A DNA stretch of 64,000 nt from Cetorhinus maximus. Taxonomy: Eukaryota. The notes below the pieces were generated by a model. The model was given only the letters and a program-made list of their open reading frames with translations. It ran no database searches and had not been told where the DNA came from. Positions 3,886 to 56,233 of the stretch are shown here, piece after piece; the stretch's first letter is position 1; each line of letters begins with the position of its first letter. The stretch is from NCBI RefSeq assembly GCF_964194155.1, contig NC_135899.1, positions 66,340,001-66,404,000 on the forward strand, read 5' to 3'. The translations under genes were made by a program, and so were the position numbers.

Positions 3886-3980
3886 TCTGATGAAAGGTCA
3901 CAGACCTGAAATGTTAACTCTGTCTCTCTCCACAGATGCTGCCATGGCCTGCTGAATATTTCCAGCATTTTCTGTTTGTA
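3886..3980 (+). mobile_element. Penelope 3'-end fragment with hammerhead core
   Basis: CTGATGA A AGGTC-ACA-GACCT GAAA TGTT AAC followed by the family tail (ctctccacagatgctgcc...). Confidence 0.7.
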
Positions 3981-5444
3981 CTCCATGAAAAATGAGTTAG
4001 GTTCATAGCTGCTATTCCCTGTACACTAAATTTCTGATCACAGCTGTATTGTAATGGGGGGAACTTTCCTGCAGGGAAACAAAATGTAAAAAGATACCAG
4101 CAAGCAATTCAATTGAGACCGCCCTCTACTGTATCTGTCACTGTGCCTGGGGTCTACTGAGTAAAGAACAAGCTTATAAAGTACATGACAATAAAAAAGC
4201 CATTGGCGAACAAGTAATGGAAAATATGGCATAATCCTAATGTGAATTAGGCTGAGACAATTTAAAATCATTTCACATAGGGCCTTAGCATAAGACTTTC
4301 ATCCCATCAACCTGAGCTGAGTTGAAATTAGATCCCAAATGTGTGGAACACAATGGTAACCTCTTGCTTCAACCAGCTACTCCCTGCTCTACCATCCCCA
4401 AAAGCAGAAATTTTTATTGCTACATCGCATGGGCTTACGGTTCCTGAAATTTCAACAGCAGCCTCTAATGGTCAGGCTATCCAAGGCCTTGAATATAAAA
4501 TGCTTGATCATAATACCCAGTTCACAAAACAAAGAGCTTTTTTTGACCACGTGCAAGTAATTAAAATATTTTCAACATACTATTAAGCTCCAAAGGAATA
4601 CAAACAAATCAATTACGGGATGGAGCAGATGAGACAGCTATTGCGAATACAACACTACCCCTTGCTGAATAAACAGGAACTCTGTATAGTCAGAACAAAC
4701 ATGCCCAGTGCTTTAAGCATTAACACTAAAGCACATCTATGGTCTGCTTATTATACATGACCTGTATACTAAATTTATCACGCACAGAATGAACAGCCTG
4801 TCAGGATTGCACCTGCTCCTCACAGAGTGGTAGATTTACTGAGTTCACTAGGTGGTCTACTTCACTAATGCAGGATTCTATGAATGGGGAAAAGCAATGG
4901 AAAGGGGGATGCAGAGGGAGAAAGTGAGCGAGGAAGGTTCATGATCTTGCCATCCAGTCAGTGCACAGCTTGACAAGGGTTATAAAGAAATCTCAACATG
5001 AATTATCTTACCCTTTTGGCTAAAGCAAGCTCCTGGGCATCAGCTAGCCCCCCGTGAAGGATGGAGAGGGAAGAGGGAAATTAAATCTTCAAAAATTTGG
5101 AAACATAAATCAAAAAAAACACAAAATCTTCCTTGAGTTAAATCAATGCAAAAAAATTTTTAAAACACTGAGGGCACTCCTGCCTCATCATGAATGGGTT
5201 GTGTTTAATATTAATTGACTAATAAAGATTTACTGATAATTCTGTTTATATGTGAGCCAATGAGCATCCATGATATCCCAGCTTACACATAAACGTGGTG
5301 ACTAATATTAGTAAGTTTTAAACCACAAAGTTTTGCCTTAAAATAGTGCTGCACTCAAAACACACAGAATTACAATTTTACAACTTGATTCTGAATCAAT
5401 GTTTCTTGTCCTTCTTAAACATGATATTTATTTTCCTGTCGCTG

Positions 5445-5615
5445 CATCAAAATCCTGGAGCTCCCTTCCTAACAGCACATGGGTATCCCTACACCACATC
5501 GACTGCAAAAGTTCAAGGTGGCGGCACACCACCACCTTCTCAAGGGCAATTAGGGATGGGCAATAAATGCTGGCCTAGCCAGTGACACCCACATTCCATG
5601 AACGAACAAAAAAAA
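5445..5615 (+). mobile_element. Second LINE family 3' tail
   Basis: caaaatcctgga...aagggcaattagggatgggcaataaatgc plus poly(A). Confidence 0.75.
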
Positions 5616-6832
5616 TGCACCATTTGTGCTGAGAATGAAAATTAATCGTTTAAAGCATGACATTGCTGCTTCAAATGAGTCTGAACATCATGAACTCTCC
5701 GTGGGAAACTGGGTATAGCCATCACCATAATCAAACCCCAGGGAACGAAAAATATCCATGGCATTAATTCATGCAGAGCACAAACAGAGACACAATGGAT
5801 ATTGATTGGTCACCTCAGGAATGACAGTAAGCTTATCTTCAAAAATAGATCACAAATTGATTTCAAATTGTCCTGGTCACTATTTATCCCTCAACCTATA
5901 ATCAATTAAAAAAACACTGGTGTTCGCAGGAGTTTGCTGTGCACAGGTTGGCAGACACATTTCCCACATTACGTCAGTGCCTACACTTCAAGGAGTACTT
6001 CATTGGCTGTAAAATGCTTTGGACCGCCCCAAGATCATAAAAGGAGCTAAGGAAATGCAAATATGTCCTTTCTAAAACAAGAGATCACCCAACACACATG
6101 CTTATGTCCTCATTTTCAAAAGTGATTTTTGTGCTTGTTTACAATATTGAGAAAGTGGGAGCCAGGTTGTATTTCCTGATTCCAGTTGCCAGTAACTTCT
6201 CCCCTCTAAAGGTTGTCAAGACAACCACAACACCAAAAGCAGGAAACACAGCACTGTCAATCAGCACGTCATTAACTGACAGAAGAGAGCCTCTGTTTAC
6301 AAAATATTTCCAGCACATTGTAAAAATACCCAGAAAACATTAAAGAAAAGCTGCACAAAATTCTTTAATAAAATTATGCCGTCTTTTACACAGTTGTACA
6401 CCCGATGCCATTACAAGTTTAAAACCGGGTTTGCTTTTAAAAGGTTTTGCTCCTAAGTCCTGTTTCCAATCAAGAGAAAAGCAAGCAGTCTGAGTTTTCC
6501 ACCTATAACACTTCACAACTGGCCAAGAACAATGGAATAGCACTTCCCTCCTGATAACGAATCACTTTGCCTTCTCTCCAAGTGGATATTGATAATTCAA
6601 CAGCATGGTGAGGAGGAATGGATCCTTCCACTCATGTAATGGTATAAATAGTTCTACACAGAACTACTTGCCTAGCAAATCAGAAGAGAGTTGCACACAG
6701 TTTGATCACTCAGCCTGAGGCTTAAAGCAGCTGTTAACTGTTTTTCTGCGGAGTACTCAGGGCTTGCTCCCAGGGCAAACAAGGACCACTCAACAATTGG
6801 TGCAATGGCAGGCCTCAAAAAAAAGAGTGCAA

Positions 6833-8233
6833 AGATAAGTCCAGCAATTACAAGCCAATCAGTTTAACTGTAGTGGTGGAGAAACTTCGAGAAACAATAA
6901 TTCAGGACAAAATTAAATAGTCACATAGACAAATATGGGTTAATTAAGGAAAGCCAGCATGGGTTTCTTAAGGGAAAATAACGTTTAACTTATCTGCTGG
7001 AGTTTTTCTGAAGAGGTAACAGAGAGGGTTGATGAGGGCAATGCCACTGATGTGGCATACATGGACTTCCAAAAGGCATTGATACAGTGCCACACAACAG
7101 ACTTATCAGCAAAGTTTTGGCTCATGGAATAAAAGGGACAATAGCAACATGGATATGAAATTGACTGAGTGCCAGGAAACAGAGTGGTTGATGGGTGTTT
7201 TCCAGGCTGGAAGAAGGTTTGTAGTGGAGTTCCTCAGGGGTCAGTGTTGAGACCCTTGCTGTTTCTGATATATATTAATGACCTAGACCTTGGTGTACAG
7301 GACACAATTTCAAAGTTTGCGGATGCCACAAAAATTGGAAGCATTGTGAACTGAGAGGAGGGTCATGTAGAACTTCAAAATGACATAGACAAGTTGGTAG
7401 ATTGGGCGGATAAACGGCAGATGAAGCTCAATGCAGAGAAATATGAAGTGATTCATTTTGGTAGGCTGAACACAAAGAGACAATATAAACTAAAAAGGTA
7501 CAACTCTAAAGCGGGTACAGGAGCAGAGGGATCTGGGTGTATATGTGCACAAGTCTTTGAAGGTGGCAGGACAGGTTGAGAGAGTGGTTAATTGAGCATA
7601 CATTATCATAGGTGTTACTAATAGAGGCATAGAGTACAAGAGCATGGAAGTTATACTGAGTTGGTTTAAGACACTAGTTCAGCATCAGCCCGTGTAATGC
7701 GTCCAGTTCTGGGCACCGCACTTTAGGAAAGATGTGAAGACATTAGAGAGAATGCAGAAAATATTCACAAGAATGGTTCCAGGGATGAGGAACTTCAATT
7801 ATGAAGATATATTGGAGAAGTTGGGACTGTTTTCCTTGGAGAAGAGAAAGCTGAGGGGAGATTTGATAGAGATACTCAAAATCATGAGGGGTCTGGACAG
7901 AATAGATAGGGAAAATCTTCCAACACATGAAAGCACAGAGTACCAGAGGGCACAGATTTAAAGTAATTGGCAAAAGAAGCAAAAGCAACATGAGGAAAAA
8001 CTTTTTCACACCGAGTGATTGGTATCTGGAATGCACTACCTGAGAGTGTACTGGAGGCAGGTTCAATCGAGGCATTCAAAAAGGAATTAGACTGTTATCT
8101 GAAAAGGAAGGATGTGTAGGGTTACGGTGAGAAGGCAGGGAATGGCACTAGGTGAAATGGTCATTCAGGGAACCAGTGCCAACACAACAAACTGAATGGC
8201 CTCCTTCTGTGCTGCAACAATTCTGTGATTCTG
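6833..8233 (+). mobile_element. CR1 LINE, 5'-truncated, RT remnant
   Basis: YMDFQKA, GVPQGSVL, FADATK, RLRGDLIE-like motifs; attctgtg-type tail; frameshifted. Confidence 0.9.
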
Positions 8234-8264
8234 AGAATTAACAAACCAACAAGATTTATATATG

Positions 8265-8372
8265 GATAAAAACAAAAAACTACTGCGGATGCTGGAAATC
8301 CAAAACAAAAACAGAATTACCTGGAAAAAGACCAGACCTGCTGAGTTTTTCCAGGTAATTCTGTTTTTGTTT
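8265..8372. mobile_element. Fold-back Penelope-terminus mini-insertion
   Basis: Inverted termini; 14-bp TSD aagatttatatatg at 8251-8264 and 8373-8386. Confidence 0.75.
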
Positions 8373-8699
8373 AAGATTTATATATGACTTACAGATTATC
8401 TTTCCACATGAGGTCTCAAAGCAATTCCTATTTTAAATGGGTAAGCCTACCGGTACTTCAAGTTGAAGCAGGAAGACATTGTGGTAATTTACAAAGTTTG
8501 AAAAGGGTAACCTGGTCGTGAGCGCAACGACACAGTGAGATAAAGCGTCATTCCTGTGAATCCCCAGTGTAAGGGGCATGGAACTCAGTTAAAGCATAAG
8601 TAGACAAGGAATAAAACTGAAGCACTTGAGGATAACTCAATCAAAGCTGCTCGCACGCACCTCCTGGCAACCAAAACAGAAAATAAAGAGTTGAAGGTA

Positions 8700-9560: not shown

Positions 9561-10571
9561 AATTGCACATTACAGCATAATCTTAGTTTTGCATATGTTT
9601 TTTCTTTATGCCCCCTTTTCACCCATTTTCCTCTCCCTTTCTCCCTGGAGACATTGACTGCTTTCTGGGTATTGTTCCACAAGCACTGGTCTCCTACAAT
9701 ATCTCACCAAATAACCATTATTTTCATACATGCCCAAAGAGTGTGTGTGTCAACAGGCTATTCAACTGGGGAATACATACAGCCAATTCAACAAACGTAC
9801 CTCCAGGAGACATCCCTGGATGGCAATCAAAGCAGGGACATGGCATGTTTCCCTTTCCTAGCATACAGTGCTGAGACTATAGTGCCCAAACCACCACCAT
9901 TCATATCAACTAGCCCAGAAACAGTTGAGACCTATGGGTTGAACCTACTGCACCCTTCCCAAGTCTGTCATAGCTGAGCTACTCACTGACCGACCCAATT
10001 GGGTCATGAGAGAAGCATTGCTTATATCATTTCGGATTAATAAAGAGTGCATGTCCTACAAGTTAACCAAGAAACCAGGATTTTTGCAGATTGCCAACAG
10101 GAAATAACAGCACAATCTTGCATTTGAAAAAAGTACCTTTCACAGATTGCACAAAGATAACTGCTATAGAAGTGGTAATGTATTTTGGGAACAGAGGGTG
10201 TGCATCATCTGAACCCTGACTGCACACCAACTTGCAATTTCCTCCTAGTTATCCAGCCATCTGTACACATTAATCTGTTAAACTTTGGAAAAACAAAATT
10301 CAATTTTTCTGGAAGAAATCCTATTTAAAAACTGGAGTGAGTGAACTAATGCAAAGGCATGTTATGCTTGGGCCAGGTAGATGTTTATCAAGACTGCACC
10401 TACACAGACTAAATAGGGAACTGTAAATTCTTCAATCAGCTGTCCCAGGGACACAGATGCTGAAGAGTCCCTTGTGGACAAGTATTCACAGGTGGATAAC
10501 TTTTGATCATTTATATTTAGAAAGTATCCAATAATAAAAATGGAAACAAACAATGTTAAAATCCTTACACT

Positions 10572-10666
10572 AAAAGTAGAAATATTGAAAATACTGAACA
10601 GGTCAGGTAGCATCTGTGGAGGGAGAACAGAGTTAAGGTTTCAGGTCAATGACCTTTCATCAGAAT
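10572..10666 (-). mobile_element. Penelope 3'-end fragment with hammerhead core
   Basis: Minus strand CTGATGA A AGGTC-ATT-GACCT GAAA plus family tail. Confidence 0.65.
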
Positions 10667-13019: not shown

Positions 13020-13630
13020 CGCAGGAAAGATAAACGTCCGAACGCAGAACCCTTGGCCTGACCCCTGGTTCCCCAATGGTTTGACTGTATTATTCAATGG
13101 ATCGATCATTGGTTTCCCAGGTGTTAGTCAAATGTCTTTCCGCGGTAAGATTTGTTACCCCGTTCCTTGAGATGTAGCTTACTGCGAATTCCCGACGAGA
13201 TTTAAAACTCCTGCAGCTGGCGATTCTTTACCTTCTTGGGTTCCTGAGTCGCTGACAAACGAGACTGCAGCTTTAAAGCCTGCTCCTGCACCCCGTCAGC
13301 AGCCATGATCCCACCGTCTCTGGCCCAGCAACCACCCGGAAGTAGTTCCGCGCATTCAACCTGGAACTGAACATATGTCCAGTGTAGTTAATAGACCCTA
13401 TTCACAATCGCCATCTTGTTTTGACACGTGGCTCAGCAACTTCCACTTTATGGAAGAAATCGGTTATGACGCTCTCGGGAGTTCATCATCTGGCATCACG
13501 AAAATATACATGAATACAAAATTGCAAAATTGCTAATTGTCATTAAATTAAACAGTTGGCGACCTGGCCTAATATCGCCTTTTTTGGCCCGGGTGTCAAA
13601 TTTTGCCTTATAACCCTGCTGCGAAGCTTC
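13020..13630 (-). promoter_or_regulatory. ELOA CpG-enriched housekeeping promoter
   Basis: Local CpG enrichment. ETS/GABP CCGGAAGT at 13336-13343, YY1-type CGCCATCTT at 13409-13417, E-box CACGTG at 13425-13430. Confidence 0.7.
13232..13306 (-). CDS. ELOA: Elongin A, coding exon 1 (25 aa); later exons not found in window
   Basis: Reverse strand reads MAADGVQEQALKLQSRLSATQEPKK, then donor AAG|gtaaag. Resembles human ELOA exon 1 as I recall it ([25 protein letters not shown]) in length and phase. Lies downstream of RPL11 on the same strand, as in human. Not in the ORF track. Confidence 0.88.
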
Positions 13631-16468: not shown

Positions 16469-16778
16469 AAATAAATTAAGTTTGCATCTCATTGGAGCAT
16501 GTGATAAATTAACAACAGCCAAAATATATATTCCACTGAAATGTCACTTTTAACAAAGGTATTTTACAAATGTATGTCAGTGAATGACAGCGACTGGTGA
16601 TATTAGCAACTAAGATAATATCCATACTGTTCTATAGCTTTGTTGCGGCACATCCATATAACATTCCTCAAAAATGTACTTCTTTTTATGAAAGATATTG
16701 CTGCATAAAAAATTGAAACAACTTTACCACTCTTCCCATTGTCTAATACATTTATTAATCCAGTAAGTATCTAATCTG

Positions 16779-18079
16779 GAACAAAAACAAAAATACCTGG
16801 AAAAACTCAGCAGGTCTGACAGCATCTGCGGAGAGGGATACAGTTGACGTTTCGAGTCCATATGACTCTTCATCAGAACTAATGAAATATAGAAATGTGG
16901 TGAAATATAAGCTGGTAGAGGGGGGTGGACAGGTAGAGCTGGATAGAGGGCCAGTGATAGGTGGAGGCAAAGAAGAGATTGCCAAAGATGTCGTAGACAA
17001 AAGGACAAAGGGGTGTTGACGGTGGTGATATTATCTAAGGAATGTGCTAATGGTGACATTAAGGGTAGAAAGCAGGACAAACAAGTTACAGATAGCCCTA
17101 GTGGGGGTGGGGTGGGGGGAAGGGATCGAAATGGGCTAAAAGGTGGAGCTGAAACAATAGATCAAAATAAATTTAAAAATAGGAGGGAAAAGAAAAAAAT
17201 ATAGTTGTAAAAAATGATAACTTATTGGAAAAAGGGGGATCGGAAAGGGGGTGGGGATGGAGGAGAGAGTTCATGATCTGAAATTGTTGAACTCAATATT
17301 AAGTCCAGAAGACTGTAAAGTGCCTAGTCGGAAGATGAAGTGCTGTTCCTCCAGTTTGCGTTGAGCTTCACTGGAACATTGCAGTAGGCCAATGACGGAC
17401 ATGTGGGCATGAGAACAGGGTGGTGTGTTGAAATGGCAAGCGACAGGGAGGTCTGGGTCATGCTTGCGGACAGACCGAAGGTGTTCCGCAAAGTGGTCAC
17501 CCAGTCTGCGTTTGGTCTCTCCAATGTACAGGAGATCACATTGGGAGCAGTGAATGCAGTAGACTAAATTGATGGAAGTGCAAGTGAAGTGCTGCTTTAC
17601 TTGAAAGGAATATTTGGGCCCTTGGGCAGTGAGGATGGGGGAAGTAAAGGGGCAGGTGTTGCACCTTCTGCGGTTGCATGGGAAGGTGCCATGGGAGGGG
17701 GTTGAGGTGTAGTGGGTGATGGAGGAGTGGACCAGGGTGTCCTGGAAGGAATGATCCCTGTGGAAAGCCACCAGTGGGGGGTGAAGGGAAGATGTGTTTG
17801 GTGGTGGCATCATGCTGGAGTTGGCGGAAATGGCGGAGGATGATCCTTTGAATGCGGAGGCTGGTGGGGTGATAAGTGAGGACAAAGGGGACCCTATCAT
17901 GGTTCTGGGAGGGAGAGGAAGGTGTGAGGGCGGATGCACGGGAGATGGGCCAAACACGTTTGAGGGCCCTGTCAACCACCATGGGTGGAAAATCTCGATT
18001 AAGGAAGAAGGAAGACATGTCAGAGGAACTGTTTTGGAAATTGACATCATCAGAACAGATGCGACAGTATCGACAGTGC
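16779..18079 (-). mobile_element. Penelope-like retroelement, 5'-truncated: RT C-terminus, GIY-YIG endonuclease and 3' pLTR
   Basis: ORF 17271-18050 has NLVYCIHCSQCDLLYIGETKRRLGDHFAEH (GIY-YIG) and CNRRRCNTC. ORF 17536-18114 has VLTYHP...ILRHF, with a frameshift near 17780. Flanking repeat ctaatctg at 16771-16778 and 18080-18087. Confidence 0.9.
16842..16880 (-). ncRNA. Minimal type I hammerhead ribozyme motif in the Penelope 3' end
   Basis: Minus strand reads AGUU CUGAUGA A GAGUC-AUAUG-GACUC GAAA C GUC AACU: core, stem II, stem I and a GUC cleavage triplet. Confidence 0.75.
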
Positions 18080-20838: not shown

Positions 20839-20839
20839 G

Positions 20840-23340: not shown

Positions 23341-23477
23341 AACAAAAACATAATTACCTGGAAAAACTCAGCAGGTCTGGCAGCATCGGTGGAGAAGAAA
23401 TCAGTTAACGTTTCGGGTCTTCATGACCCTTCGGCAGAACTGAGTATAGTTAGGAGAAAAGTGAAATACGGTGAAAT
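23341..23477 (-). mobile_element. Penelope 3'-end insertion inside a CR1 tail
   Basis: 11-bp TSD atgttgatgag at 23330-23340 and 23478-23488. Variant core CTGCCGA A GGGTC..GACCC GAAA CGTT. Confidence 0.75.
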
Positions 23478-27984: not shown

Positions 27985-28080
27985 TGCTCTGAAGGAGACA
28001 TTTGGGCTCAAAACGTTAACTTTCTCTCTCCACAGATGCTGCCAGACCTGCTTAGTTTTGCCAGCATTTTCTGTTTTTAT
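27985..28080 (+). mobile_element. Penelope 3'-end fragment
   Basis: aaacgttaac...ctctccacagatgctgccagacctgct family tail. Confidence 0.6.
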
Positions 28081-31832: not shown

Positions 31833-31983
31833 TTTAAGAAGTATTTGGATGTGCACTTGCGATGCCATGGCATACAAGGCTATGGGCCTAGTGCTGGAAA
31901 ATGGGATTAGAATAGTTAGGTACTTGTTTGACCAGTGCAGACTCGATGGGCTGAAGGACCTTTTTCTGTGTAGACCTCTATGA
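31833..31983 (+). mobile_element. CR1 3' end
   Basis: aagtatttggatgtgcacttg...tgggctgaagg tail. Confidence 0.8.
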
Positions 31984-32029
31984 GAGGCCAGATGAGGGGC
32001 TGATGACATTCACAGTTGAATCTGTCATA

Positions 32030-32607: not shown

Positions 32608-34444
32608 ATTCAACCTGTGCCGATAAACTAACATCCACTTGCTTTCTGCAATTACAGATGATGCTATTATTGAAATATTCACGATGCAGAGCATCCTATT
32701 TCCTAGCTAAAAAGGAAATGCAATGATGAGTATGGGCATAAAATTGGCGCATGTAATCTTTTTCCAAGTGGTATGTTTTTTCCATTCCTCTCCTACAGCT
32801 ACTGTGGCGTATGAATCCACACATGCTGATAAATTTCCATTAACTTTTCCAAGTGACCATTCTTCATGTCAGCCTAGTCAGTGAGTGTTGCAGAAATTTG
32901 ACCATGGAGGGTATCCTATTCTGTTACCTAGTATCTAGATAGGGTCAGAAGCAGGAAATCTGACTAATTTTCCTCACTGTGGCACCAGGAGAACTGAGCC
33001 AACTGTAGAACCTCAATGGGCACAAGCAGGAAACAAGTAGGCAGATTGATTGACATTACAGGAAGACAAGATAACTGGTTCTCCCAGCTAGGGGGCTCAT
33101 GTGACATGACTCCCACTTCTCCACTTTGGCTTTGACAAAGGTTGTATATTCTTTAGTCTGGATTCTTGAGAGTGTTGATGTTTCAACCATTAAGAGATTC
33201 AAAGTCTGGTGAGCAGAAAAATCGTATCTTTTGTTACACTGAACATTGTTAAAGATTGAAAAAGGCAATTGAGAGCAAACCCATCTGAAATCTGACCACT
33301 CTTAAGTTTTAAACCACAGGCTTATAGATTGCATTACTCACACAGCACTTTGCAAACAGGTCCTGAGCCATAGCAGGAGCCATAACAAAATTCATCTGTA
33401 CATGTATACATCATTCAGACTAAGAAGAGAGACAATAATATATCTGGGATCATTGAATAACCATGCTGTGCTTGTGTGAATACTGTTGAATGGGAAATAG
33501 AAATAGAGTGAGTTTTTTAACGCTACTTAAGGACAGCCTATTTCTTAAACTGTTGTAGGACTGGAAAAATTCAGACTTGAATGAGGATTTTTATGTGCTG
33601 GGCAGAATGACAGTGGAGGATTGATATTTAAACAAAACTGCTGGGTTATTAAAGATGTGTTTATTGTATCAAGAGTAATTTTTAAGTCTTTTAAAAGATC
33701 CAAAAATATGGCAGTCATTGGGAGAATATTTTCTAAACTGATCAAGATTATCCAAATATTTTAAGTTTAATAGTTGTTAATATTTTATGATGCCTTACCT
33801 AGATTTGTTTGCTTGCAAGAGATGCTCTTCCTAAATAATGAGTTTCTTTCAAATATAGCACATAGTGTGACAGCCTCTCATTACAGTTATATTAAATACA
33901 GCAGACCCCTGCTTTTGTTTGTTACACACTATTGAGATTGTATTTATTTTAGATTAAAAACCTGATGAACAATGAAAAAAGACAGAATTGGGATTTAGCT
34001 GTGCTTTTCATATCCTCAGAACATCCTAAAGCACCTCATATTGACTGAAGGAATGTCAGGCCTTCCAAGTCTTTTGAGGATTTTTGAGAAGCTGTTAAAT
34101 TATCCCAGAAGTTTTTGCTGCCCCGTTACAATCTACTGGGACAGAATTTTGTGCTTTTGCGAGAATTGGATTCAGTCTGAGTTTTAAAATTTTTTTTATT
34201 TAAGAGATAATACAGACTGGTTTATTTTACAGCATTGTAAACTTCAACCTGATTATTCATCCATCAATGAGAAGCAGTAGACTCCAGGGGAGCAGGAACT
34301 TTCAGCTTTGGGCTTTGATGTTTGCAATGGTTCTGTTTGCAAAACTTGAAATTGAGGAGCTGGAAACAATCATTTGTGAACTAATATAAATCTTGATTCT
34401 CAATGAAGTTGTGTTATACACAACATTTTAGCTCTGGTTCTTAA

Positions 34445-34890
34445 CCGCTTGACTCAGTTGGTAGCAGCCCTCTGGGTCAAGAGGTCTGGGAGTTGAACTC
34501 AACTCCTGATTTGAGCACATAATCTAGGCTTCCACTCCACTGCAGAACTGAAGGAGCACTGCAACATTGGTGGTGCCATCTTTTAGATTAGATGTTAACC
34601 TGAGACCACAGCTACCCTTTCAGGTAGATGCAGAAGAGCCCGTGGCACTTTTTCAAAGTGAAGGGAAGTTCTTCCTGGTCTCCTGACCAACATTTATCCC
34701 TCAACCAACATAAAAAAAACAGATAATGTGAATATATCATGTTGCTGTTCCTTAGATCTTGCTGTGCATAATTTGGGTGCCGTGTTTCTAACAGGAGCAG
34801 CTTCACTTCAGAAGTACTTAATTGGCTGTGTTGAACTTTAGGACATCATAAGATCATAAAGGCACTATATAACACTAAATTCTTTCTTTA
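34445..34890 (+). mobile_element. tRNA-derived SINE (DeuSINE/SacSINE-like by inference)
   Basis: A-box-like gactcagttggtag, B-box-like gttgaactc, L2-like tail ggcactatataa...ttctttc. Confidence 0.65.
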
Positions 34891-35488
34891 GGACCTCTCC
34901 AGAGATATGACAAAGCACAGTAGAATGCAAGCTTTTTTTTAGTCACTAAAAGTTCTTACTGCTCACTTCAAATTGTTTGAATCCCTTGGTGTTTCAAAAG
35001 TAATATTTTTCAATTAGAAACCTGAGAGCAGAGGCAAGTCCAGTTGGGTGAGGCATCATTAAAGTTGTAAGAAGTAATAAAGTAAAAAGACTTGCATTTA
35101 TACAGCACCTTTCATGACCTTAGCATGTCCAAAAGTATTTTACAACCAACAAAGTACTTTTGTGATGTGTAGTCACTGGTGTAATGTAGGAAAGGAAACA
35201 TCAGGTAAATTATTAAGTGGTTATTAGATGTGCAACATAAAATCTCCTTGTTTTTCCTGCTGGTGTTATGCCTGGGACTACTTGATAAGAGATCAATTGC
35301 TATGATTAGTCAACAACTCCACTGTCATTGTATAACGCAGCTGCCAGAGTAGTAGAATGGATGAACCCTCGTCTTTTTCGGGTAGCAATTCTTACATAAA
35401 ATGCAAATCATATGAAATGATGAGGTTATCTCCTTGATGTGGTCTTTCTGATATCGAAAGGTATATTTAAAAAAGTGGTGTTTTTCAG

Positions 35489-36221
35489 ATATGACCCTCG
35501 TTTCAACACTTGGTTTCATTTGGCCAGCATGCTCCAGAGGCGAACCCATTTCAGCATGTGCACTTACAATGGCCTTCTTTTTGCTATCGGAGGTCGGAAT
35601 TCAGAAGGTCCCCTCTCATCCATGGAATGTTACATCCCCTCCACTAATCAGTGGCAGATGAAGGCTCGGATGGAGGTTGCGCGTTGCTGCCATGCTTCTG
35701 CACTCAGCGATGGCAAGATCCTGGTAACTGGTGGCTACATCAACAATGGCTACTCTCGCACAGCGTGTGCCTACGATCCTACAATAGACACTTGGAAAGA
35801 TTATGCCAATTTGAGTACCCCCAGAGGCTGGCACTGTGCAATCACTTTTGGTGATTATAGCTATGTGATGGGGGGTAGTCAGCTTGGGCCACAAGGTGAG
35901 CGAGTTGATGTAATAACAGTTGAACGCTACAACGCTTACAATGGCCAATGGAGCTACGTGGCTCCTCTTGTGATCGGTGTGAGCACAGCTGGTGTAACAA
36001 CCCTGAATGACAGAATCTATCTGGTTGGAGGTTGGAATGAAAGTGCAAAGAAATACAAGAGCTGCATCCAAGCCTACAATCCAGATCTGAATGAATGGAC
36101 TGAGGAGGACGAGCTGCCAGAAGCCACAGTGGGTGTCTCGTGCTGCACCATTATGTTGCCGAATAACAAACTTCGGGAGTCCAGAGCTAGCTCTGTGGCA
36201 TCTGCAGCAATCAGTATCTAA
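35489..36221 (+). CDS. klhl43: KLHL31-like kelch protein (probably klhl43), last coding exon: kelch repeats
   Basis: Acceptor tttttcag|A restores the AG|A Arg codon. YDPRFNTW...GG kelch repeats...[15 protein letters not shown]. Joined CDS is 1187+733=1920 nt, 639 aa. Confidence 0.92.
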
Positions 36222-39200: not shown

Positions 39201-41356
39201 CTGTGAACTTTCCATTTGGAATACTGGACAAATGACTATTCTCAGCAACAGGGCTTCAGACTGCTGTTATACATACTGGTTCTAATTCTATAATGGATTT
39301 ACAATTTACTACTCCTGCTAGAAGTGCACAGGAGGCAAAAGGAATTTACTGCTATTGTACCCAGACATGAGATTACTAAAATGGGGCAATAAACAACAAA
39401 AAAAAACATGGCTGAACCCTGATCAAAGCAGGACTGATTTCTCAATTTTAGAATGGCTAGGTTACATTTGAATCAAGGTTTCTATGCAATAGAACAGGAT
39501 GACAATGTGCAGGAAAAAAATCCCCATCCCCACCCCAGGATTTCTCCAACAAGGTTGAATTGAATTTGTACAATATATTCGGATCAAGTTTGCATTTATT
39601 TGAACTCTACTAGCCCAGTGAAAATAAAGAGAGAGGGAGAGAAAGAAAGAGAGAGACAGACAGACAAGAGTTAATACCACTCCTTGTATAACACAGTAGA
39701 CAGGCTGGCGGCTAAAGTTAATAGAATTTTTTTTTTTTGAAGGATAGAGAAAGTAACAAAAAGGGCTGTTCAATTTAAAAGAAAATTGCAGAAATGTGTC
39801 AGGTTCCTTGCATACTGACTGTCATGAGAAGATATGAATTACTATTTATGTGTGAATAAAAATATATAAATAGTAAATATGGTGCATTTGTGTTTGTCAT
39901 AAATATGGTGCATTTATTGTTTGTCACTATCCTGCAGTCATAAGGTTTTACACAATGTAATAAAATATCCCCAAAGTAGTTCAACCAACACATTGAAATG
40001 AAAGCATTCTACATAATTCTCTGTAGATGCAAAAATGAATGAGAATGGTTATATAAACAAAAATAAAATTGCTATAAGCCCTCAGCAGGACAAGGAATAT
40101 TTGTGGACAGAACGGCATAATTAATATTTTGGTTGTGGACCCTTTATCAAAGCTGGAGGAAAATACTAATAAATATATCTTTCTTTTAAATCTGAAAAGC
40201 GAAAATATTACAATACACCAAAGTTAGAAGTGATAATGGGACAAAAGGAAACATTATGAGTAAATCAAGTAAAAGATACAGACACAAAGATATAGAAATG
40301 GAACCACTAAAATCTGGCAAAGTAGAGCAGTTCAGGAACATGGTAGAAAAAAAAAGGGAGGGTGGGAAGCAGCTCAACATAAAAAGTGCAAACTATCTGG
40401 ACAGTGTGTTCTGATGCAGGATCTCCATCCCACATACAAACAGCTTCTTCCCTCATTCTCAGAAACAACATTCTTGGGGTGGAGACTCAATCTAAACACT
40501 TGGCTGAGAAGGTAGTCTGCATCATTGGTATCCACCAGCTTTATTCTTTTTCCTTCTGTGATATTTTCCTCCTTACTTTTGTGCTATTGATTCCTGGATG
40601 CCGCTCATTTGTCATATCTTCAAATAAGACAGCTTTTAGACAGTGGGACACTACAACTAACCACTGGGGGAGGTCCCAATCAACTTTTCGCCTCGAGTCA
40701 ATAGTTTGAAGATAGGGCTTCAGCCATAATGCTCTTCACTGCAGAATTGCCAGTTGACAATAAAAAAAAACTTTCCCGATCATGAATTCATGGGGCACAG
40801 CTTTCCACAATAGCACTAAACAGGAAATCACATATGCAAAGCCCAAGATTTCTTGCTCCTGATGGGTGAAATGGCACTGAGGATGCACAATTGGAAGGTT
40901 TAATCTAGTGTTCAGGCTTACATCTGAAGAATTAGCATTTGGTTGAAATCTTGAACAATAGTCTTATGATTCTCTCACAAGAAAACAGACACAATTAAAA
41001 AAAAAGTGCAATATAAAAGGAATAGGAAGATTTTAGGGTAGTTGAGCAAATATGGGTCTATAATGGGGTGATTCACACCAATTAGCTCTTGTTCCATGCA
41101 TGGCATCAAGATTCTTGAGTCTACAGATAAGTGGAGTGCATGTCAAATAGTAATATCACAAAAAGGCCTAAAATCATTAAATGTGGTAAACTCATCACTG
41201 GACACGACAAACTTTGTCAAATGACAATTCAGTACAGAATCAGAACGTAGTGTAAACCAGCAGTACAATTAACAGTTGTCTTTGTCTAAATCCAAGTTAC
41301 AATAACGAGGTAACTACCAGTGGACTAAAACAGAATAGAGTTATGGATCAGATCCT

Positions 41357-41383: not shown

Positions 41384-41413
41384 TTATTTTCCTGGGAGAA
41401 TGATACCATCGTA
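41384..41413 (-). CDS. RPL11: RPL11 exon 6 (30 nt)
   Basis: cag|YDGIILPGK*. Exon lengths sum to 537 nt, 178 aa plus stop. Confidence 0.96.
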   Translation of the reverse strand, partial: YDGIILPGK

Positions 41414-41534
41414 CTGCAAAATAAAAGAAAAGCAAATCATTAGAAAGTGAAATGCCTTGAAAACAAATTTCAGGTTGCATCTACATTTATGCAGACATTC
41501 AGATTGCTGAGTAACACCATGAAAGCAAAGGTAC

Positions 41535-41645
41535 CTTCTGTTGGAACCAACGCATAGCCTCCTCCTTGTTGATCCTGTGTTTGGCTCCAATGCGACCACG
41601 TTTACGCTTCTTGTCAGCAATGCTGAAGCCTGGTCTTCCCAGAAC
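41535..41645 (-). CDS. RPL11: RPL11 exon 5 (111 nt)
   Basis: [37 protein letters not shown]; tag/gt. Confidence 0.97.
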
Positions 41646-42289
41646 CTATAAAATTGAAAAGAGGAGGAAAGGAGTCACAACAGAAGCAACGGGTGGGAAA
41701 AGGAAAAGTCTTTATCTCCAAAGTTTCAAATTTCTAGGGTACTGGAGGAAACTATAAATGGGTTGGGCTTTAATTAAACTGAACCAACATCAATATCTTC
41801 AGATGGTAAATAGAAGAATGAGGGGAGAGTGAGGCAAGGGAGGGGCAAATCTTTGCAAATATGAAGTTAAGAATGCATATACTAAAGGGGCAAATTGTTC
41901 AATGGTTGGTCGGGGGTGGTGGGGTGGAGATAGAGAGAAAGAGCACACAAGAAAGGATAATAGAAAGGAAAAGGGAATTCAATATTCCAATTTATTCAAT
42001 TTTCAAGATAGGTGGTAAAGTGAAGATGTGTGGCCTATTAACTAAGGAGATAATTACAACCACCAGAAAGTTTATCATTGATGATTCTCAAACAAAATTT
42101 GTCTTGAAACCAATCACCATACTGGGTATACATTATAGATCAAATATTTCAGGAGGACAGAACAGTTGGCCATGTGCTCATTTCAGAGGGAAGAAGAGAG
42201 AGGTTTAGAGTGCAGATACATAGATCTTTATAAGTTGAGAGTATATAAAAACATTTACAGGAAGGATCCATGGGAAAGATACAAAGGTT

Positions 42290-43110
42290 CACTAGGTTCC
42301 AGGCTTGGGCTGACAAGTGGCGAGCAACATTCGTATCACAAAAATGACAGGCAATGACCATCTCCAACAAGAAAGAATCTAACCATTGTCCCCCGCCTTT
42401 AACATTCAATGGCAGTACCATCACTAAATCCTCCATTGTCAACATCCTGGGAGTTACTATTGAGCAGAAACGGAACTGGACTAGCCATATAAAAACCATG
42501 GTTACAACAGCAGGTCAAAGGCTAGGAATCCTGTGGTGAGTAACTCACCTCCTGACTCCGCAAAGCCTGTCCACCATCTACAAGGCACAAGTCAGGAGTG
42601 TGATAGGATACTCGCCACTTGCCTGGATGAGTGCAGCTCTAACAACACTCAAGAAGCTTGACACCATCCAGGACAAAGCAGCCCACCTGATTAACACCTC
42701 TTCCACAAACATTCACTCGATCCACCACCGACGAACAGTGGCAACAGTGTGTACCATCTACAAGATGCACTGCATAAACTCACCAAGACTCCTTAGACAG
42801 CACCTTCCAAACCCATGACTACTACCATCTAGAAGGACATGGGCTGCAGATACATGGGAACACCACCACCTGGAAGTTCCCTCCAAGCCACTCCACATCC
42901 TGACTTGGAAATATATCACCATTCCTTCACTGTCGCTGATCAAAATCCTAGAACTCCCTCCAAAACAGCACTGTGGGTATACCTACACCACAGACTGTAG
43001 CGGTTCAAGAGGGCAGCTCACCACCGCCTTCTCAAGGGCAATTAGGGATGGGCAATAAATGCTGGCCTAGCCAGCAACACCCACATCCCGTAAATGAATA
43101 ACAAAAACAA
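42290..43110 (+). mobile_element. Second LINE family (CR1/L2 group) 3' portion
   Basis: YKAQVRSV.GYSPLAWMSAALTTLKKLDTIQDKAA; tail ttctcaagggcaattagggatgggcaataaatgctgg. Confidence 0.85.
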
Positions 43111-43139
43111 CAATCAGCTCTGTTTGACGAAAATGTTTT

Positions 43140-44360
43140 TTACCACAAAGATGAGGGTAGTGCAGTTGATGTAGTTTATATGGATTTCAGCAAAGCCTTT
43201 GACAAGGTCCCACGTGGGAGACTTATAAAGGCGGCAAATGCACATGGGATACCGGATAATTTGATAAGGTGGATTCAAAATTGGCTTAGTTGTAGGAGAC
43301 AAAGGGTGATGACAGAAGGCTGATTTAGTGACTGGAAGCCCGTGTCCAGTGGCGTACCACAGGGATCTGTGCTGGGTCCCCTGTTATTTGTCATTTATAT
43401 AAACAACATAGATGACTATGTGGGGTGTAGGATTAGTAAGTTTGCAGATGATACAAAGATTGGCCGGGTGGTTAACAGTGAGGTTGAGTGTCTTGGGCTA
43501 CAGGAAGATATAGACGGGATGGTCAAATGGGCAGATAAGTGGCAGATGGAATTTAACCCTGAAAAGTATGAGGTGATACACTTTGGAAGGAGTAATTTGA
43601 CAAGGAAGCATTCAACGAACGGCATGACACTAGGAAGCTCTGAGGAACAAAGGGACCTTGGCGTGTGTGTCCATAGATCTCTGAAGGCGGAGGGGCATGT
43701 TAGTGGGGTGGTGAAAAAGGCATATGGGACACTTGCCTTTATCAATCGAGGCATAGATTACAAAAGTAGGGAGGTCATGTTGGAGTTGTATAGAACCTTG
43801 GTAAGGCCACAGCTGGAGTACTGTGTGCAGTTCTGGTCGCCACATTATAGGAAGGATGTGATTGCACTGGAGGGGGTGCAAAGGAGATTCACCAGGATGT
43901 TGCCTGGGATGAAACATTTAAGTTATGAAGAGAGGTTGGATAGACTTGGGTTGTTTTTGTTGGAGCAGAGAAGACTGAGGGGCGACCTGATCGAGGTGTA
44001 CAAGATTATGAGGGGCATGGACAGGGTGGATAGGGAGCAGCTGTTCCACTTAGTTGAAGGATCAGTCATGAGGGGACACAAGTTCAAGGTGAGGGGCAGG
44101 AGGTTTAGGGGGGATGTGAGGAGAATCTTTTTTACCCAGAGGGGGGTGATGGTCTGGAATGCACTGCCTGGGAGGGTGGTGGAGGCGGGTTGCCTCACAT
44201 CCTTTAAAAAGTACCTGGATGAGCACTTGGCACGTCATAACATTCAAGGCTATGGGCCAAGTGCTGGTAAATGGGATTAGGTAGGTAGGTTAGGTGTTTC
44301 TCATGTATCGATGCAGACTCGATAGGCTGAAGGGCCTCTTCTGCACTGTGATTCTGTGAA
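43140..44360 (+). mobile_element. CR1 LINE, young subfamily, 312-aa open ORF2 C-terminus
   Basis: GVPQGSVLGPLLF, FADDTK, LRGDLIEVYKI; tail tgtgattctgtg. Confidence 0.95.
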
Positions 44361-44693
44361 ACAAGTGTTATTAGAATATGGAGTGACTTACACGAGTGAT
44401 TACCAAAACAGAGATTATTTATTTTTAAAAACTGGATGAGTGTTTGAAAAGAAATATAAAACAGAACAGAGGCCAAAAAAATACAATTACAGTAGAGAGT
44501 TCTAGTTGAAGAGCTAGCACTGGAACAGGTGTGGGATCAAGTGACCTCTTATGCTGCAGTTTCAGTATTTCAATTTTCATTCAGTAATTCTCAATGTCAC
44601 TAAGGGAACACTTGCAGCATATTTTACCTTCATTATGGTTCTTGGCTGGCTTTGAACCACCATTCTCACAGTCTGCTGAACAATGATACTGGG

Positions 44694-44927
44694 ACAAAAA
44701 CAGAAAATGCTGGAAAAACTCAGTAGGTCCAGCAGCATCTGTGGAGAGAGAAACAGAGTTAACATTTCGAGTCTGTATGACCCTTCTTCAGAGCATCCAG
44801 GTCATACGGACTTGAAACGTTAACTCTGTTTCTCTCTCCACAGATGCTGCTGGGCCTACTGAGTTTTTCCAGCATTTTCTGTTTTTGTTTCAAATTTCCA
44901 GCATCTGCAGTATTTTGCTTTTATAAT
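44694..44927. mobile_element. Fold-back Penelope-terminus mini-insertion in RPL11 intron 4
   Basis: Two inverted 3' ends; TSD atgatactggg at 44683-44693 and 44928-44938. Left arm has the CTGAAGA core on the minus strand. Confidence 0.8.
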
Positions 44928-47719
44928 ATGATACTGGGCCCAGTTGGAATACCATGCCGATTCCTCTTTCCATCATTAGGAGTGGAAGCATATTATTTGA
45001 AAACAGATTACCCCAACTTTCAGAGAAAGTAAGTTTGAAGTTTGGTTTCCGGTCAGTGCTAAGTTAGCTGATCTAGGCCAGGCCATCAGTAAAAAGAAAA
45101 TGATCCCCTCCATGATCACTATCTAGTTATTCCTGCTGAAGTGCTTATAAATGGATGTCAGCTGAGACGGAAACATGGATGCATTGACCCACTGAGCAAA
45201 TAAACAACCATCTGAAATGGTACCACAATAGAAAAAAGGGTCTTAAAAAGAAACATTGCTGCACATTTAATAACAGGTATATGTATTTATCATATATGGA
45301 GAGTGTTTAATTAATCCAGTGATATAACAGCATGATGTCAGGAATCCTTTTGAAATCGGTTTCATCACTTCTTCTCCCATAAAGGAAGATCTCACCCATT
45401 TCCCAAAAGTAAAAAAAGGTGATGTCCTCCTGGTCTTGATCATAAGTAAATAGAAAAGTCACCTATTAAAGGCCAAAATGATCCAGTTCTAGAGTGGGAA
45501 GCTGAATTCTCATGCTTAACACCATCTATGCTGCTGCATCACAACCAAGTCATCGGGAAATAATGGTTTTAAAATCTAATACTTAAAATCAAATTTTTTT
45601 TAAAAAACTTTGAAAGACATTATTTTCTACCTCCAATCTCTTTTCCATGACATACATTAGCCCCTTTAAGTGCCCAAGCCAATCTTCTGACAGGCATCTC
45701 CCACACTGCTTTGAAACAACAGGCCACAATTTCCTCAAAATAAGCGAGGCTAATGGCATTTGCTGTTATTTATGCATAAATAGTACAGTAACTTCAAGGG
45801 GCAGATGGGAGGTTAAATGTAAATATCCAAAAGTCACTGCCGGAGTTGCACCACTCCACCATTAACTTCACAAAAATTACATCATGCTGCTTGCCTCACC
45901 ATTGAAATGCATGGAGTTGCTATATTTAGGTAGCAGATCAACTTAAACGCCCCATGGAAAGTTCTCTATCATCTCAACTCTAAGTACTCTTCTAATGATA
46001 AGTGTTAATTGCTGCCAAACAACCTCTCTGGCACTGAAAATTAACTATAAGTATGGAATCCCATTCCTTCAGGTATTAACTGTAGAAATGTTTAGGTTTT
46101 GTAATTAGTTTGGTTATGGTAACAGTCAAGTAATTGAAATATATTAACTCAACACAATATTTTGCTGAGTTGTAGTCAATACAGGGCATGAGTCACATGA
46201 CTAGGCCCCTGTTAAAATTGCGTAAAGCAAAACAACTGCAAGGTTTTATAAAATTAGTCAGAATTAGCTTAGTCCTTTTAACCTGTACTATTATAAATAT
46301 GTAACCATCTTTGGTTTTGTAAGTTTACAGTTGAGTTCTGTAATCAGTTTTCATAGCTCCATAGTTTTTATAACTTGTATTCTTTATGAACCTGTAATGT
46401 ATTAGGCTGTATTCTATATCTGTATCTTGTTACCTTAAGTTTAACACACCAGTCATCTGTAGGCACTGATTTTTATATGTACTTACGTAGACTTCATGTA
46501 ACAGAATCACAATCTTTAAGGTGCAGAAGGAGGCCATTTGGCCCATCAAGTCTGCACTAGCTCACTGAAAGAGCATTCTACCTAATCCCACTCCCGTGCC
46601 TTATACCCATAACCTTGCACATTCTTTTCAGATAGCAATCCAAAACCTCTGTAATTTGGTCATTTCTGTAAGATTATGCACCCCTCTGTACTCCCTTTAC
46701 TATATTTTAATTAACTTTTACAAACCACAGGCAGATAAGAATTCTATAAAACACCTAGACATCAATTAAACATTTGGGTTACTGAGTCTAAATGTTAATC
46801 AGTAATGCTAGTAACCACACACTCTTATCTTGAACAAACACACACCAAAACTAAAAGCAGACATTGAAACTATTGGTAAGTCACAAAATGTAATAATAGG
46901 AAAGGCTACAATGAGGGTGATGGTCTTATGCATAATTAATACAATAGACAATCATCCACCACCCAATTGAATCAAAAACTGATCATGCACCACTTGAGCC
47001 AATCAGAATCCAAAAACAGAAGAAGTCGTCATGCACATGGGTTGTAGTTTTGAAAGAGCTTTGAGTAAATTCACCGTGCCTGTTAGAAGGCCGAACTGAA
47101 GTATGCTTTCCAGCCAGAGCAGAAGATCACAACACTCAAGGGACTGATAAGTATCACCTTGTGCCCTAGGCTGAATCAGGAAGTAAGAACCGCATTGAAC
47201 CAATAAAGTCACTGCCTTTGTTAAGCATTGCTTAATAAATATTTCCTGACTCACATCACCAGAATGTCTCCTAATGCCTGAATGGTCAAAGTATCAAAAG
47301 GACAAATTAATATTGAGTAAATGGATTTGGAGGTCAAACACCCCCAAAACTTAAATAACTTGGAGATTTAGAAGTAATTTAAAATTCAAATGTTTGTGTT
47401 TTTTTTCTATTAATCCAACCTTTCTGTACCCGGTATCGATATTGAGTTCTTCCACTCTAAGTTACACTTCATTCTCAATCCTTGTTCCGTTTATTTCTCA
47501 ATCCTTCAACCTGATTTGTTAAGGAGATAGAGTAGCTTACCCTGTTCACTCAGATCCCAGATGCCTTGTTTCCTTTGTTGCAGCATTATCAGCTTACACT
47601 TGCAACAATTTGTCATTCAAAAAAGGTAAAACCTAAACATACAAAGCATGTTTAAAATAACAGCAGGTATCATTAGATGCCTCACTCCAACAAATTATGG
47701 CCCAATGTATTTGAAACTT

Positions 47720-48205
47720 GTGAGAACACAAGAACTAGGAGGAGTAGACCATACGGCTCACTGGACCTGCTCTGCCATTCAATATGATCATGACCGATTT
47801 TGGGCTTCAGCTCCATTTTCCTGTCTGCTTCACATATCCCTTAATTCCCCAGTACGCCAAAAATCTATCTATGCCAGCTTTAAAAATATTCAATGGTGAA
47901 GCATCCACAACTCTCTGGGTTAGAGAATCCCAAAGGTTCCCAACCCTTTTGAGTGAAGCAATTTCTCCACATCTCAGTCCTATATGATTGGCCCCTTATC
48001 CTGATACTATGCCCAGTATTTTAGACTCCCTGGCCAGTGGAAACAATCGCTCCTGTGTCCACCCCATCAAGTTCCTTCAGAATTTTGTAGGTTTTGATGC
48101 GATTGCTTCTCACTCTTCTAAACTCCAGAGAACATAAGCTCAATTTACTTAGCCTCTCATTATAGGACAACCCCCTCATCCCAGCGACCAATTTAGTAAA
48201 ACTTA
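47720..48205 (-). mobile_element. CR1 3' portion
   Basis: Reverse-complement CR1 tail (aagaactaggaggagtagacc...) and ORF2 end. Confidence 0.8.
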
Positions 48206-49381
48206 GCGAGGAGCCTCATCGTTTGTGTGTGCAACTAATATCATGCCACCCAGCAGCACAGCACACTGCAATTCTAATAAGTTTGAATATATTTGAACAA
48301 CAGTATCTTCCATTCTGCCACCAAATGTTACTATTTATTAGTTCAGTAAAGGGAAACACCATTAATACAAAAAGAATCTCTTACCACGCATTATGTATGT
48401 TATCAGTATTACCTGCCCATCACATTACCTCCCCACCTCCTCGCCAAGTCCAAGTAGCCATTCTTCTTGTGTGACTAAAAAGACGGCAAGTAGTAACGAT
48501 CAGAGGCATCACAATCAAATGCATCCTGTTCTCCTAAGATATCTACACTCTTTTCAACTGGAATTACAACAATTAGCAGCAGGAATCCTTGGCCTTTAGG
48601 GCAAGACAGTCCAGGATTACCCCTTTGTCTGTGCTGAGTTAGCTTAAGGTAGAAACAGGGAGTACGCTATATCATATCCCCACTAATCGGGAAGAGTGGG
48701 GAAAGTTTTTTTTGTAAAAGCCAATTCACCCGTCTCCTATCACTATCTAGTGCCTACCCTGGAAAGTGCACAGTGAGAATTTGAATCAGATCAGCCATGT
48801 CACCTTCAAAAGCACACCAACACTCGAACTGGAGTGAAACATAAAGAATGGCTTAGGGCAATCTACCAGAAGCTGGGTAATGCTCTAAGAGCCATAAATC
48901 AAAAAAGTCAGCACATTCAAGACAGCAGGGGAAAAAAAACTGCATCAAAATGGTGTAATGGGGGAATTCTAGTTTTGAAGCTTCAGCCATGCTACAACCT
49001 CAATACACTAAGTTACTATCCAAACACAATGGCCAGTATAATGATTTCATTTCAGAATCTGAGGTCACACATAGAACCTATACTGCATTTTGTAATTCGT
49101 AAAATTAGAACAAGAGTATCAATGACCAAGAATTATAAAATTATATAGGGTTGGGATAAATTAAAATTAATATAGCTTCTTCACTATACAGGGCTTGGGC
49201 ACAACTTAATCTAGTATTGGGACACTGGAATATCTAGATAAATAACTAGGATGGGTTAAGTTTTACACTAGCTGCCATTCTGCACTAATGAAAATGTATT
49301 AAATAAAAATCTGAAGCAATTTTTTAAGTCAACTTACTTTATAGACAGCAGGGCTGAGAGACCTGGGAACAGAAGACTTTG

Positions 49382-49512
49382 TAAAAGCAAAATACTGCGG
49401 ATGCTGGAAATCTGAAATAAAAACAAAGTGCTGAAAAAATCAGCAGGTCTGGTAGCACCGGTGGAGAGAGAAACAGAGATAGCGTTTTGAGTCCGATATG
49501 ACTTTTCTTTGG
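49382..49512 (-). mobile_element. Penelope 3'-end fragment, degenerate
   Basis: aaatactgcggatgctggaaatctg...cagcaggtctggtagca family tail. Confidence 0.65.
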
Positions 49513-49638
49513 GACTCAGAAGTAGAAGTTTTGGCTTGGATCAATGTATGCAGGAAATAGCTGGGCCCAGAAAAATATCCCTTGGGGAAAAATGCTTTTA
49601 AGCAGCACATTTAAATGCATATTCATCCAACTGTTTTA

Positions 49639-49938
<300 letters not shown>

Positions 49939-50091: not shown

Positions 50092-50202
50092 TTTGATGAC
50101 AGGTCACTGACATGACATGCTAACACTGTTTCTTTCTCCACAGATGCTGCCTGACCTGAGTATTTCCAGCATTTTTATTTCATCTACAGTATTTTGCTTT
50201 TG
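50092..50202 (+). mobile_element. Penelope 3'-end fragment, degenerate
   Basis: tctccacagatgctgcctgacctgag...gtattttgctttt family tail. Confidence 0.6.
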
Positions 50203-50474: not shown

Positions 50475-50645
<171 letters not shown>

Positions 50646-55380: not shown

Positions 55381-55596
55381 AAAATACACCCTCCTCAACA
55401 CACACATCATTCATTCCTTTTGTTATTGGGGGGGGGGTCCTTTTGTTATTGGGGGTGGGGGGGGGGGGTCCTTTTGTTATTTAGGAGGGTGGGGAAACTT
55501 AATTAGAGAATGCCAACCAACAATTTCCTCAAAAACTGATAACCCCAAAAAAAAAATGGGACTTGCATTGGAAGAAGAAAAGCAAAAGCCTGATAA

Positions 55597-55853
55597 GTGT
55601 AAAAGCAAAAAACTGCGGATGCTGGAAATCCAAAACAAAAACAAAAATACCTGGAACAAACTCAGCAGGTCTGGCAGCATCTGTGGAGAGGAACACAGTG
55701 AACGTTTCGAGTCCGCATGACTCTTCAACAGAACTCAGTTTTTGAGGAAATTGTTGGTTCTGTTGAAGAGTCATGCGGACTCGAAACGTTCACTGTGCTC
55801 CTCTCCACAGATGCTGCCAGGCCTGCTGAGTTTTTCCAGGTATTTTTGTTTTG
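55597..55853. mobile_element. Fold-back Penelope-terminus mini-insertion upstream of RPL11
   Basis: Near-perfect inverted arms; TSD agcctgataa at 55587-55596 and 55854-55863. Confidence 0.85.
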
Positions 55854-56024
55854 AGCCTGATAAACGTGGAAGGTACAAAATGTGTTTTTTTTCTTGAAGC
55901 TTGGCTGCCATGCCTCGCCCTCTGACATTTGATTTCTTGGTGTGCCATCGAACATCTAAAAATATAACTATCGCAATTTATTTTATTTCTTTGAATTTCT
56001 CCCAGCCAGTGTTGTTACATTGCT

Positions 56025-56233
56025 AAAAACAAAAAACTGCAGATGCTGGAAATCCAAAACAAAAACAGAACTACCTGGAAAAACTCAGCAGGTCTGGCAA
56101 CATCGGCGGAGAAGAAAAGAGTTGACGTTTCGAGTCCTCATGACCCTTCTGTTGAAACTCGAACTCGAAACGTCAACTCTTTTCTTCTCTCTGCCAGACC
56201 TGCTGAGTTTTTCCAGGTAATTCTGTTTTTGTT
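56025..56233. mobile_element. Fold-back Penelope-terminus mini-insertion
   Basis: Inverted arms; 13-bp TSD ttgttacattgct at 56012-56024 and 56234-56246. Confidence 0.85.

Follow-up and report, generated by a model that had tools for sequence, protein, structure and literature searches.

Putative minimal hammerheads of an apparently Neptune-type Penelope-like element in Cetorhinus maximus, and a succession of letters at their core position 6

Do the hammerhead-like motifs scattered over a 64,000-nucleotide stretch of the Cetorhinus maximus genome (NC_135899.1, positions 66,340,001 to 66,404,000; hereafter the window) belong to working ribozymes, and on which copies does selection act? A sequence-only reading of this stretch had proposed a dispersed, structure-selected ribozyme family of Penelope origin, with some copies lying in sense orientation in host introns. 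Our analysis traces the motifs to a Penelope-like element (PLE) and brings out a feature unmentioned in that reading, namely a U or C in place of A at core position 6. The best explanation, and very probably the right one, is that these are minimal hammerheads of the element's pseudo-long-terminal-repeat (pLTR), probably acting, and slowly, only in tandem transcripts of master elements, with the dispersed and intronic copies likely being inert stubs.

The best copy in the window (16842-16880, minus strand) has the letters ascribed to it earlier: a stem I of 5 bp, the core CUGAUGA, an extra A, a stem II of 5 bp, GAAA, the palindrome ACGU and a GUC site. It reads as an intact minimal type-I hammerhead motif whose predicted cut would fall at 16846/16845, as had been proposed. 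The motif matches the published PLE consensus CUGANGAH...GAAAN-palindrome-UH exactly, and ACGU, in the place of helix III, is the majority in all three groups of copies sampled below. The stem II variants AGGUC/GACCU (3887, plus; 10663, minus), GGGUC/GACCC (23437, minus) and GGGUC/GACUC (44791, minus) exist as reported, each with 5/5 pairs. A stem III consisting of ACGU is found in some copies, but it is AUGU in 3887 and 44791 and ACCU in 10663, and stem I is just 1-2 bp in these three. The motifs are real, but only 1 of the 14 examined copies in the window combines a strict core, a stem I of at least 4 bp, a full stem II and ACGU. The core of the copy near 23420 (23437, minus) is CUGCCGA, i.e. 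A6C, and the cores of those at 55731 and 55760 are CUGUUGA (A6U).

A profile made from window copies gave 15 matches in the window and 127 in 138 grid-chosen 10-kb stretches of the 4-Gb genome, against none in the reversed control; 96 of the 127 cover the motif. This hammerhead-bearing family is not a chance pattern. The bare pattern CTGATGA-N8-30-GAAA is not above chance in the window (3 observed vs 1.85 expected), and the Rfam check that had been suggested, run on the window, returned no hammerhead among 22 matches at E<=5; Rfam hammerhead covariance models expect a full helix III. The Rfam microRNA matches in the window come from fold-back pairs and were set aside. Minimal hammerheads are already known in PLEs, and the family as first framed is not new.

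Which element carries the motifs? We assign them to the 3' pLTR ends of a Neptune-type PLE. The best copy is preceded by 1.3 kb of shared element, about 91% identical over that length to two other loci (L005 and L012) and ending in a GIY-YIG frame; its open reading frame (ORF) changes frame near 17690 and ends at about 17271, and its GIY-YIG match is below the cut-off (E=0.014). The motif sits about 400 nt past the GIY-YIG stop. A protein search of the genome gave 80,885 first-look candidates. The ORFs of long copies join RVT_1 (E=5.7e-8 in one match) to a C-terminal GIY-YIG domain; in L123 and L196 RVT_1 is above the cut-off and GIY-YIG below it (E 0.0014 and 0.00065), and two other ORFs have weak or no domain matches. 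A copy with C at position 6 (C6) contains an open frame of 696 amino acids. The reverse transcriptase (RT)/GIY-YIG ORF, together with tandem units bearing a motif in each repeat, bears out the Penelope origin and minimal dimer-type hammerhead proposed earlier. Long copies also have a CX4CXXC linker before GIY-YIG and a CCHH motif, and a CX2-5CXXC linker with CCHH marks Neptune/Nematis PLEs (PMC8557442). The Neptune assignment rests on these motifs, a criterion shared with Nematis. Our first label, Poseidon (Penelope/Poseidon clade), was dropped because the linker finger, which should be absent from that clade, is present.

The insertions are mostly 5'-truncated and often head-to-head: of 57 neighbour pairs, 21 are head-to-head within 300 bp vs two direct, a count on which a non-LTR retrozyme, with its short head-to-tail hammerhead arrays, was rejected. 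Head-to-tail tandems of about 3.3 kb, with the motif in each repeat, occur at 2 of 18 long-ORF loci (L129, L134), and an inverted 5' copy at five (L123, L124, L130, L137, L140). The 3' ends fall at +65-69 from the cut site in 26 of 72 copies and at +100-114 in 28, giving two preferred ends about 35-40 nt apart, which fits the optional 30-40 nt PLE tail. This truncated, inverted and tandem arrangement is known PLE insertion anatomy. Extrapolation puts the number of pieces at 3-4x10^5. Some long elements lie inside or beside tandem-repeat arrays (L123:3100-9400, L133:5410-10000, L125:9050-10000).

The letter at position 6 follows the divergence of the copies. Of the 96 sampled copies, 72 (score >=60) entered the group alignment: A6 is found in 27/34 copies of the oldest group, whose divergence from the group majority is 12.8%; U6 occurs in 16/19 copies of the middle group (8.4%), and the youngest (4.9%) has C6 in 15/19 and U6 in 4/19, with A6 in none. 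In a flank-only tree of 62 copies, with a midpoint root beside old A6 copies and 4 of 66 rows dropped (2 duplicates, 2 poorly aligned), U6 and C6 copies group together (100/99) and C6 is nested within them (100/97). Position 6 changed first from A to U and then from U to C, within a single lineage that continued to amplify. In the oldest group, the CUGAAGA subfamily (e.g. L170:9502-9544) often has AGCU/AACU, a stem I mismatch, with C there in 12/34 copies.

Genome-wide, exact matches to the 34-nt scaffold number 19,102 for U6, 5,871 for C6, 4,092 for A6 (3,497 + 595) and 241 for G6; the search patterns, which vary a little in the letters they permit, are biased towards young copies, and reversed controls gave 0 matches. 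The 24,973 U6/C6 matches depart from the CUGANGA core at position 6, and the 4,092 A6 matches agree with it. A 421-bp C6 query found, among its top matches, 39 other loci at 99-100% identity, with CUGCCGA in all 19 non-self loci examined, whereas the best identity for two A6 queries was just 93-97%; in a comparison that used these two A6 queries, the C6 copies appear to be the youngest.

What could a hammerhead without A6 be doing? The swapped core letter is likely to slow cutting, by analogy with A6C hammerheads, whose activity is reduced in Mg2+ but restored by Mn2+ (PMC7151607, PMC3088659). It is possible, though doubtful, that the U6/C6 motif has ceased altogether to be a ribozyme and serves as a structural or protein-binding RNA part near the start of reverse transcription. 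A6 is, after all, missing from 19/19 copies of the youngest group and from 86% of exact matches to the scaffold, Naiad PLEs are successful despite lacking the motif, the region downstream of the motif is conserved as well, and hammerhead mutants had no effect on insertion in vitro (PMC11167929). Natural A6C hammerheads nevertheless retain low activity (PMC7151607, PMC3088659). Moreover, between the A6 and C6 majorities (9 rows dropped: 4 tree-dropped, 2 discordant, 3 old), 0/12 other core letters, including G8 and G12, and 0/9 scored stem II letters changed, vs 76/235 positions of the upstream untranslated region (UTR; p=0.02). G8 and G12 are the hammerhead catalytic bases. Stem II has also acquired a C-G pair by way of a wobble intermediate, and in C6 copies the length of stem I is up to 6 bp.

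The preferred reading, slow minimal hammerheads in master transcripts, would work as follows. In tandem transcripts, two motifs would pair through ACGU and cut slowly, as dimers; minimal PLE hammerheads are described as having no activity as monomers and little as dimers (PMC4209133). The element's protein may aid the cleavage of motifs in such transcripts, as the anole PLE hammerhead is reported to cut only with the element's protein, while insertion in vitro can dispense with the hammerhead (PMC11167929). The weaker U6/C6 cores would be tolerated because fast cleavage is likely dispensable for transposition, with the scaffold and the other core letters remaining constrained. More tentatively, and with less than even odds, a recently active vertebrate Penelope lineage may have exchanged the supposedly invariant A6 for U and later for C, overtaking its canonical ancestor because a slower, protein- or metal-gated ribozyme would leave more template uncut. 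If this were true, U6 would be a natural and still functional hammerhead core in at least 19,000 copies, hidden from CUGANGA searches.

Several results weigh against the preferred reading. By nearest-neighbour energies, 5/5 copies prefer some other fold to the dimer hammerhead, although this cofold result carries little weight, as the calculation takes no account of core contacts; monomer fold z-scores are null in 5/5 copies. Two copies are placed discordantly in the tree, an A6 copy within the U6 clade and a U6 copy within the A6 clade, and with the age comparison drawn from two A6 queries only, a young A6 lineage could lie outside the sample. The conservation of the core between lineages cannot be told apart from that of the downstream 57 nt, with 0/12 changes in the core vs 7/57 downstream (p=0.34), and core conservation between U6 and C6 alone is not significant (p=0.13). 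Finally, profile scoring favours intact cores, and the private-mutation test described below has low power and leans to constraint, at 2.1% in the core vs 2.9% in the flank.

At which level, then, is structure selected? Stem II is paired in 93% of cells across 30 copies, whereas controls in which the whole structure was slid reach 16-46%, and two of its pairs have changed on both sides (G-C to A-U in 7 rows; U-A to C-G in 3 rows, with a U-G intermediate in 2). These related rows were hand-picked to include variants; in them the covariation score exceeds 500/500 shuffles, and the number of covarying pairs does not exceed the shuffles (287/500). The latter result, the small number of independent events and the several one-sided changes that are C to T at CpG would be expected if the covariation were only subfamily drift and CpG decay, without structural selection at any level. 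We consider this very unlikely in view of the two-sided changes, the slid controls and the exact fit to the published consensus, and also of the stem II haplotypes: in the window and 216 loci (6 duplicate loci omitted, at least 3/5 pairs required), 12/12 recurrent haplotypes (seen at least twice) keep all five pairs, and 16/22 singletons break one. The compensatory changes claimed earlier are present, but as few inherited events rather than many independent ones; they are lineage-level changes handed down from master lineages.

Selection would act on the RNA of master elements, followed by neutral decay after insertion. Private mutations outside CpG are found at 12/583 core, 27/929 stem and 108/3753 flank positions (p=0.34 and 1.0) and, because their rates are equal at core and flank in this low-powered test, the dispersed and intronic copies appear not to be selected. 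The description of the family as structure-selected thus holds for master lineages only, with dispersed copies mutating similarly at core, stem and flank. A strict core is present in 15 of the 96 sampled copies, and none of the 96 combines it with a stem I of 4/4 and a stem II of 5/5.

The host introns pose the same question for individual copies. The sense copies had been placed correctly in ELOA intron 1 and RPL11 intron 4. ELOA is a minus-strand gene; its exon 1 covers about 13232-13306, and exon 2 lies outside the window, some 5 kb beyond its left end. The gene is named from PF06881 matches further left and from what we take to be ELOA exon motifs. For RPL11, also on the minus strand, contigs from runs presumed to be RNA contained one splice joint (41413-41535); they had no accumulation of ends at the motifs, a feature that contigs would not reveal in any case. 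That dispersed copies are host-selected intronic ribozymes cutting or regulating pre-mRNA, as in ELOA or RPL11, might be argued from the two sense copies and from the roughly 4,100 genomic copies that keep the exact A6 core, the 5' arm of stem I and stem II. We find this hardly credible: the sense copies have only 1-2 bp in stem I and loops other than ACGU, private mutations accumulate equally at core and flank, and antisense copies lie in the same introns too (3887, 44799, 50094). The RPL11 sense copy, in addition, pairs with its antisense twin in a long hairpin of -154 kcal/mol (z -21.7), of which it forms one arm. Cleavage by either copy is predicted to be unlikely, and a role of the copies in host introns is not supported, because the sense copies have a broken stem I and the RPL11 copy lies in a fold-back. 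Exapted intronic hammerheads of the HH9/HH10 type are single-locus and conserved across species with full helices; the intronic copies here are without full helices.

In all copies (e.g. 16800-16845, minus), the cut site is followed by a branch-point-like sequence, a pyrimidine tract, CAG, and then ATG at the start of a short ORF (about 30 codons). Cryptic splice acceptors are a possible function of the sense copies, but of the 93 joints in the tandem unit, the 15 listed include no GT-AG joint, and the acceptor-like sequence stays unsupported.

How does this family compare with known systems? The minimal hammerhead ribozyme of Cervera and De la Pena (PMC4209133) is likewise of type I, with an extra nucleotide after A9, G10.1-C11.1 in most lineages, the palindromic ACGU for helix III, and C or U at the cut site; it too occurs once per pLTR, in thousands of solitary copies and in inverted pairs. 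It differs in that there is no shark among the 56 representatives of the supplement and 56/56 have A6, the survey search itself having required A6, whereas the dominant and youngest copies here have U6 or C6. The endonuclease-positive Neptune/Nematis PLEs (PMC8557442) share the RT with C-terminal GIY-YIG and CCHH, the CX2-5CXXC linker, the partial tandems, the inverted 5' copy and the 30-40 nt tail; the estimated copy number here, about 10^5.5 stubs, exceeds the tens of thousands quoted for Naiads. The Anolis Poseidon element PAc (PMC11167929) has the same pLTR hammerhead and two 3' ends defining a tail, but it has no linker finger and its ORF starts inside the ribozyme, whereas here a short ORF starts about 20 nt past the cut and the long frame lies further downstream. 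The phage Bcep176 hammerhead (PMC3088659, PMC7151607) has the same C at core position 6, but as a single full hammerhead, slow in Mg2+ and faster in Mn2+; here, by contrast, a minimal dimer-type motif has been amplified thousands of times and was preceded by a U6 state. In the literature searched, the U6 state was not found described, and there was no report of U6/C6 PLE cores or of shark PLE hammerheads, although coverage was incomplete and an earlier report is possible.

Surveys based on CUGANGA would miss most intact-scaffold copies in the Cetorhinus maximus genome. The A6, U6 and C6 series provides near-identical putative ribozymes with a known order and relative amplification, so that the role of the hammerhead in PLEs, whether needed, dispensable or parasitic (PMC8557442, PMC11167929), becomes directly testable.

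Table 1. Pieces of the putative Neptune-type element and host landmarks in the window
Feature	Position	Strand	Remarks
5'-truncated Neptune-type Penelope-like element	16773..18067	-	RT thumb/linker end, CX4CXXC, GIY-YIG/CCHH endonuclease, 3' UTR, hammerhead
Old pLTR stub, CUGAUGA, AGGUC/GACCU, stem I 1 bp	3887..3979	+	antisense in ELOA intron 1
Fold-back stub of pLTR tail without hammerhead	8264..8370	.	14-bp direct repeat on both sides
Old pLTR stub, AGGUC/GACCU, stem I 2 bp, ACCU (broken palindrome)	10570..10663	-	sense, ELOA intron 1
pLTR stub, C6 core CUGCCGA, GGGUC/GACCC, stem I 6 bp	23342..23443	-	
Decayed pLTR stub	27992..28079	+	
Strongly decayed pLTR stub	40058..40149	-	
Head-to-head fold-back pair of pLTR stubs	44694..44924	.	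RPL11 intron 4
pLTR stub with tail, 5' half of core lost	49382..49510	-	RPL11 intron 4
Old decayed stub	50094..50180	+	antisense in RPL11 intron 3
Fold-back pair, U6 core CUGUUGA on both arms, tail on one	55600..55852	.	
Fold-back pair, truncated core	56024..56233	.	13-bp direct repeat on both sides
Host ELOA coding exon 1	13232..13306	-	intron 1 extends left beyond window start
Host RPL11 intron 4	41646..49674	-	

In the fold-back pair at 44694..44924, the sense arm has the core CUGAAGA with a stem I of 1 bp, and the tail is on the plus arm. The 13-14 bp direct repeats around two fold-back stubs (8250-8385 and 56010-56240) resemble target-site duplications.

Between ELOA and RPL11, on the opposite strand, lies a BTB-BACK-Kelch gene identified by Pfam (29886-36221, plus), presumably resembling KLHL31/KLHL43. 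A second Elongin-A-like gene and a ribosomal L5-family gene lie close together at G000:C5:64.77-64.82 Mb, which suggests a duplicated block. Two RT fragments (RVT_1) of the long interspersed element (LINE) type, which we take to be CR1-like, are 93% identical to each other (26947-27942 and 43324-44359), one of them in RPL11 intron 4. At 63100-63740 (minus), open frames without a Pfam match have a CCHC-like, protease-like look.

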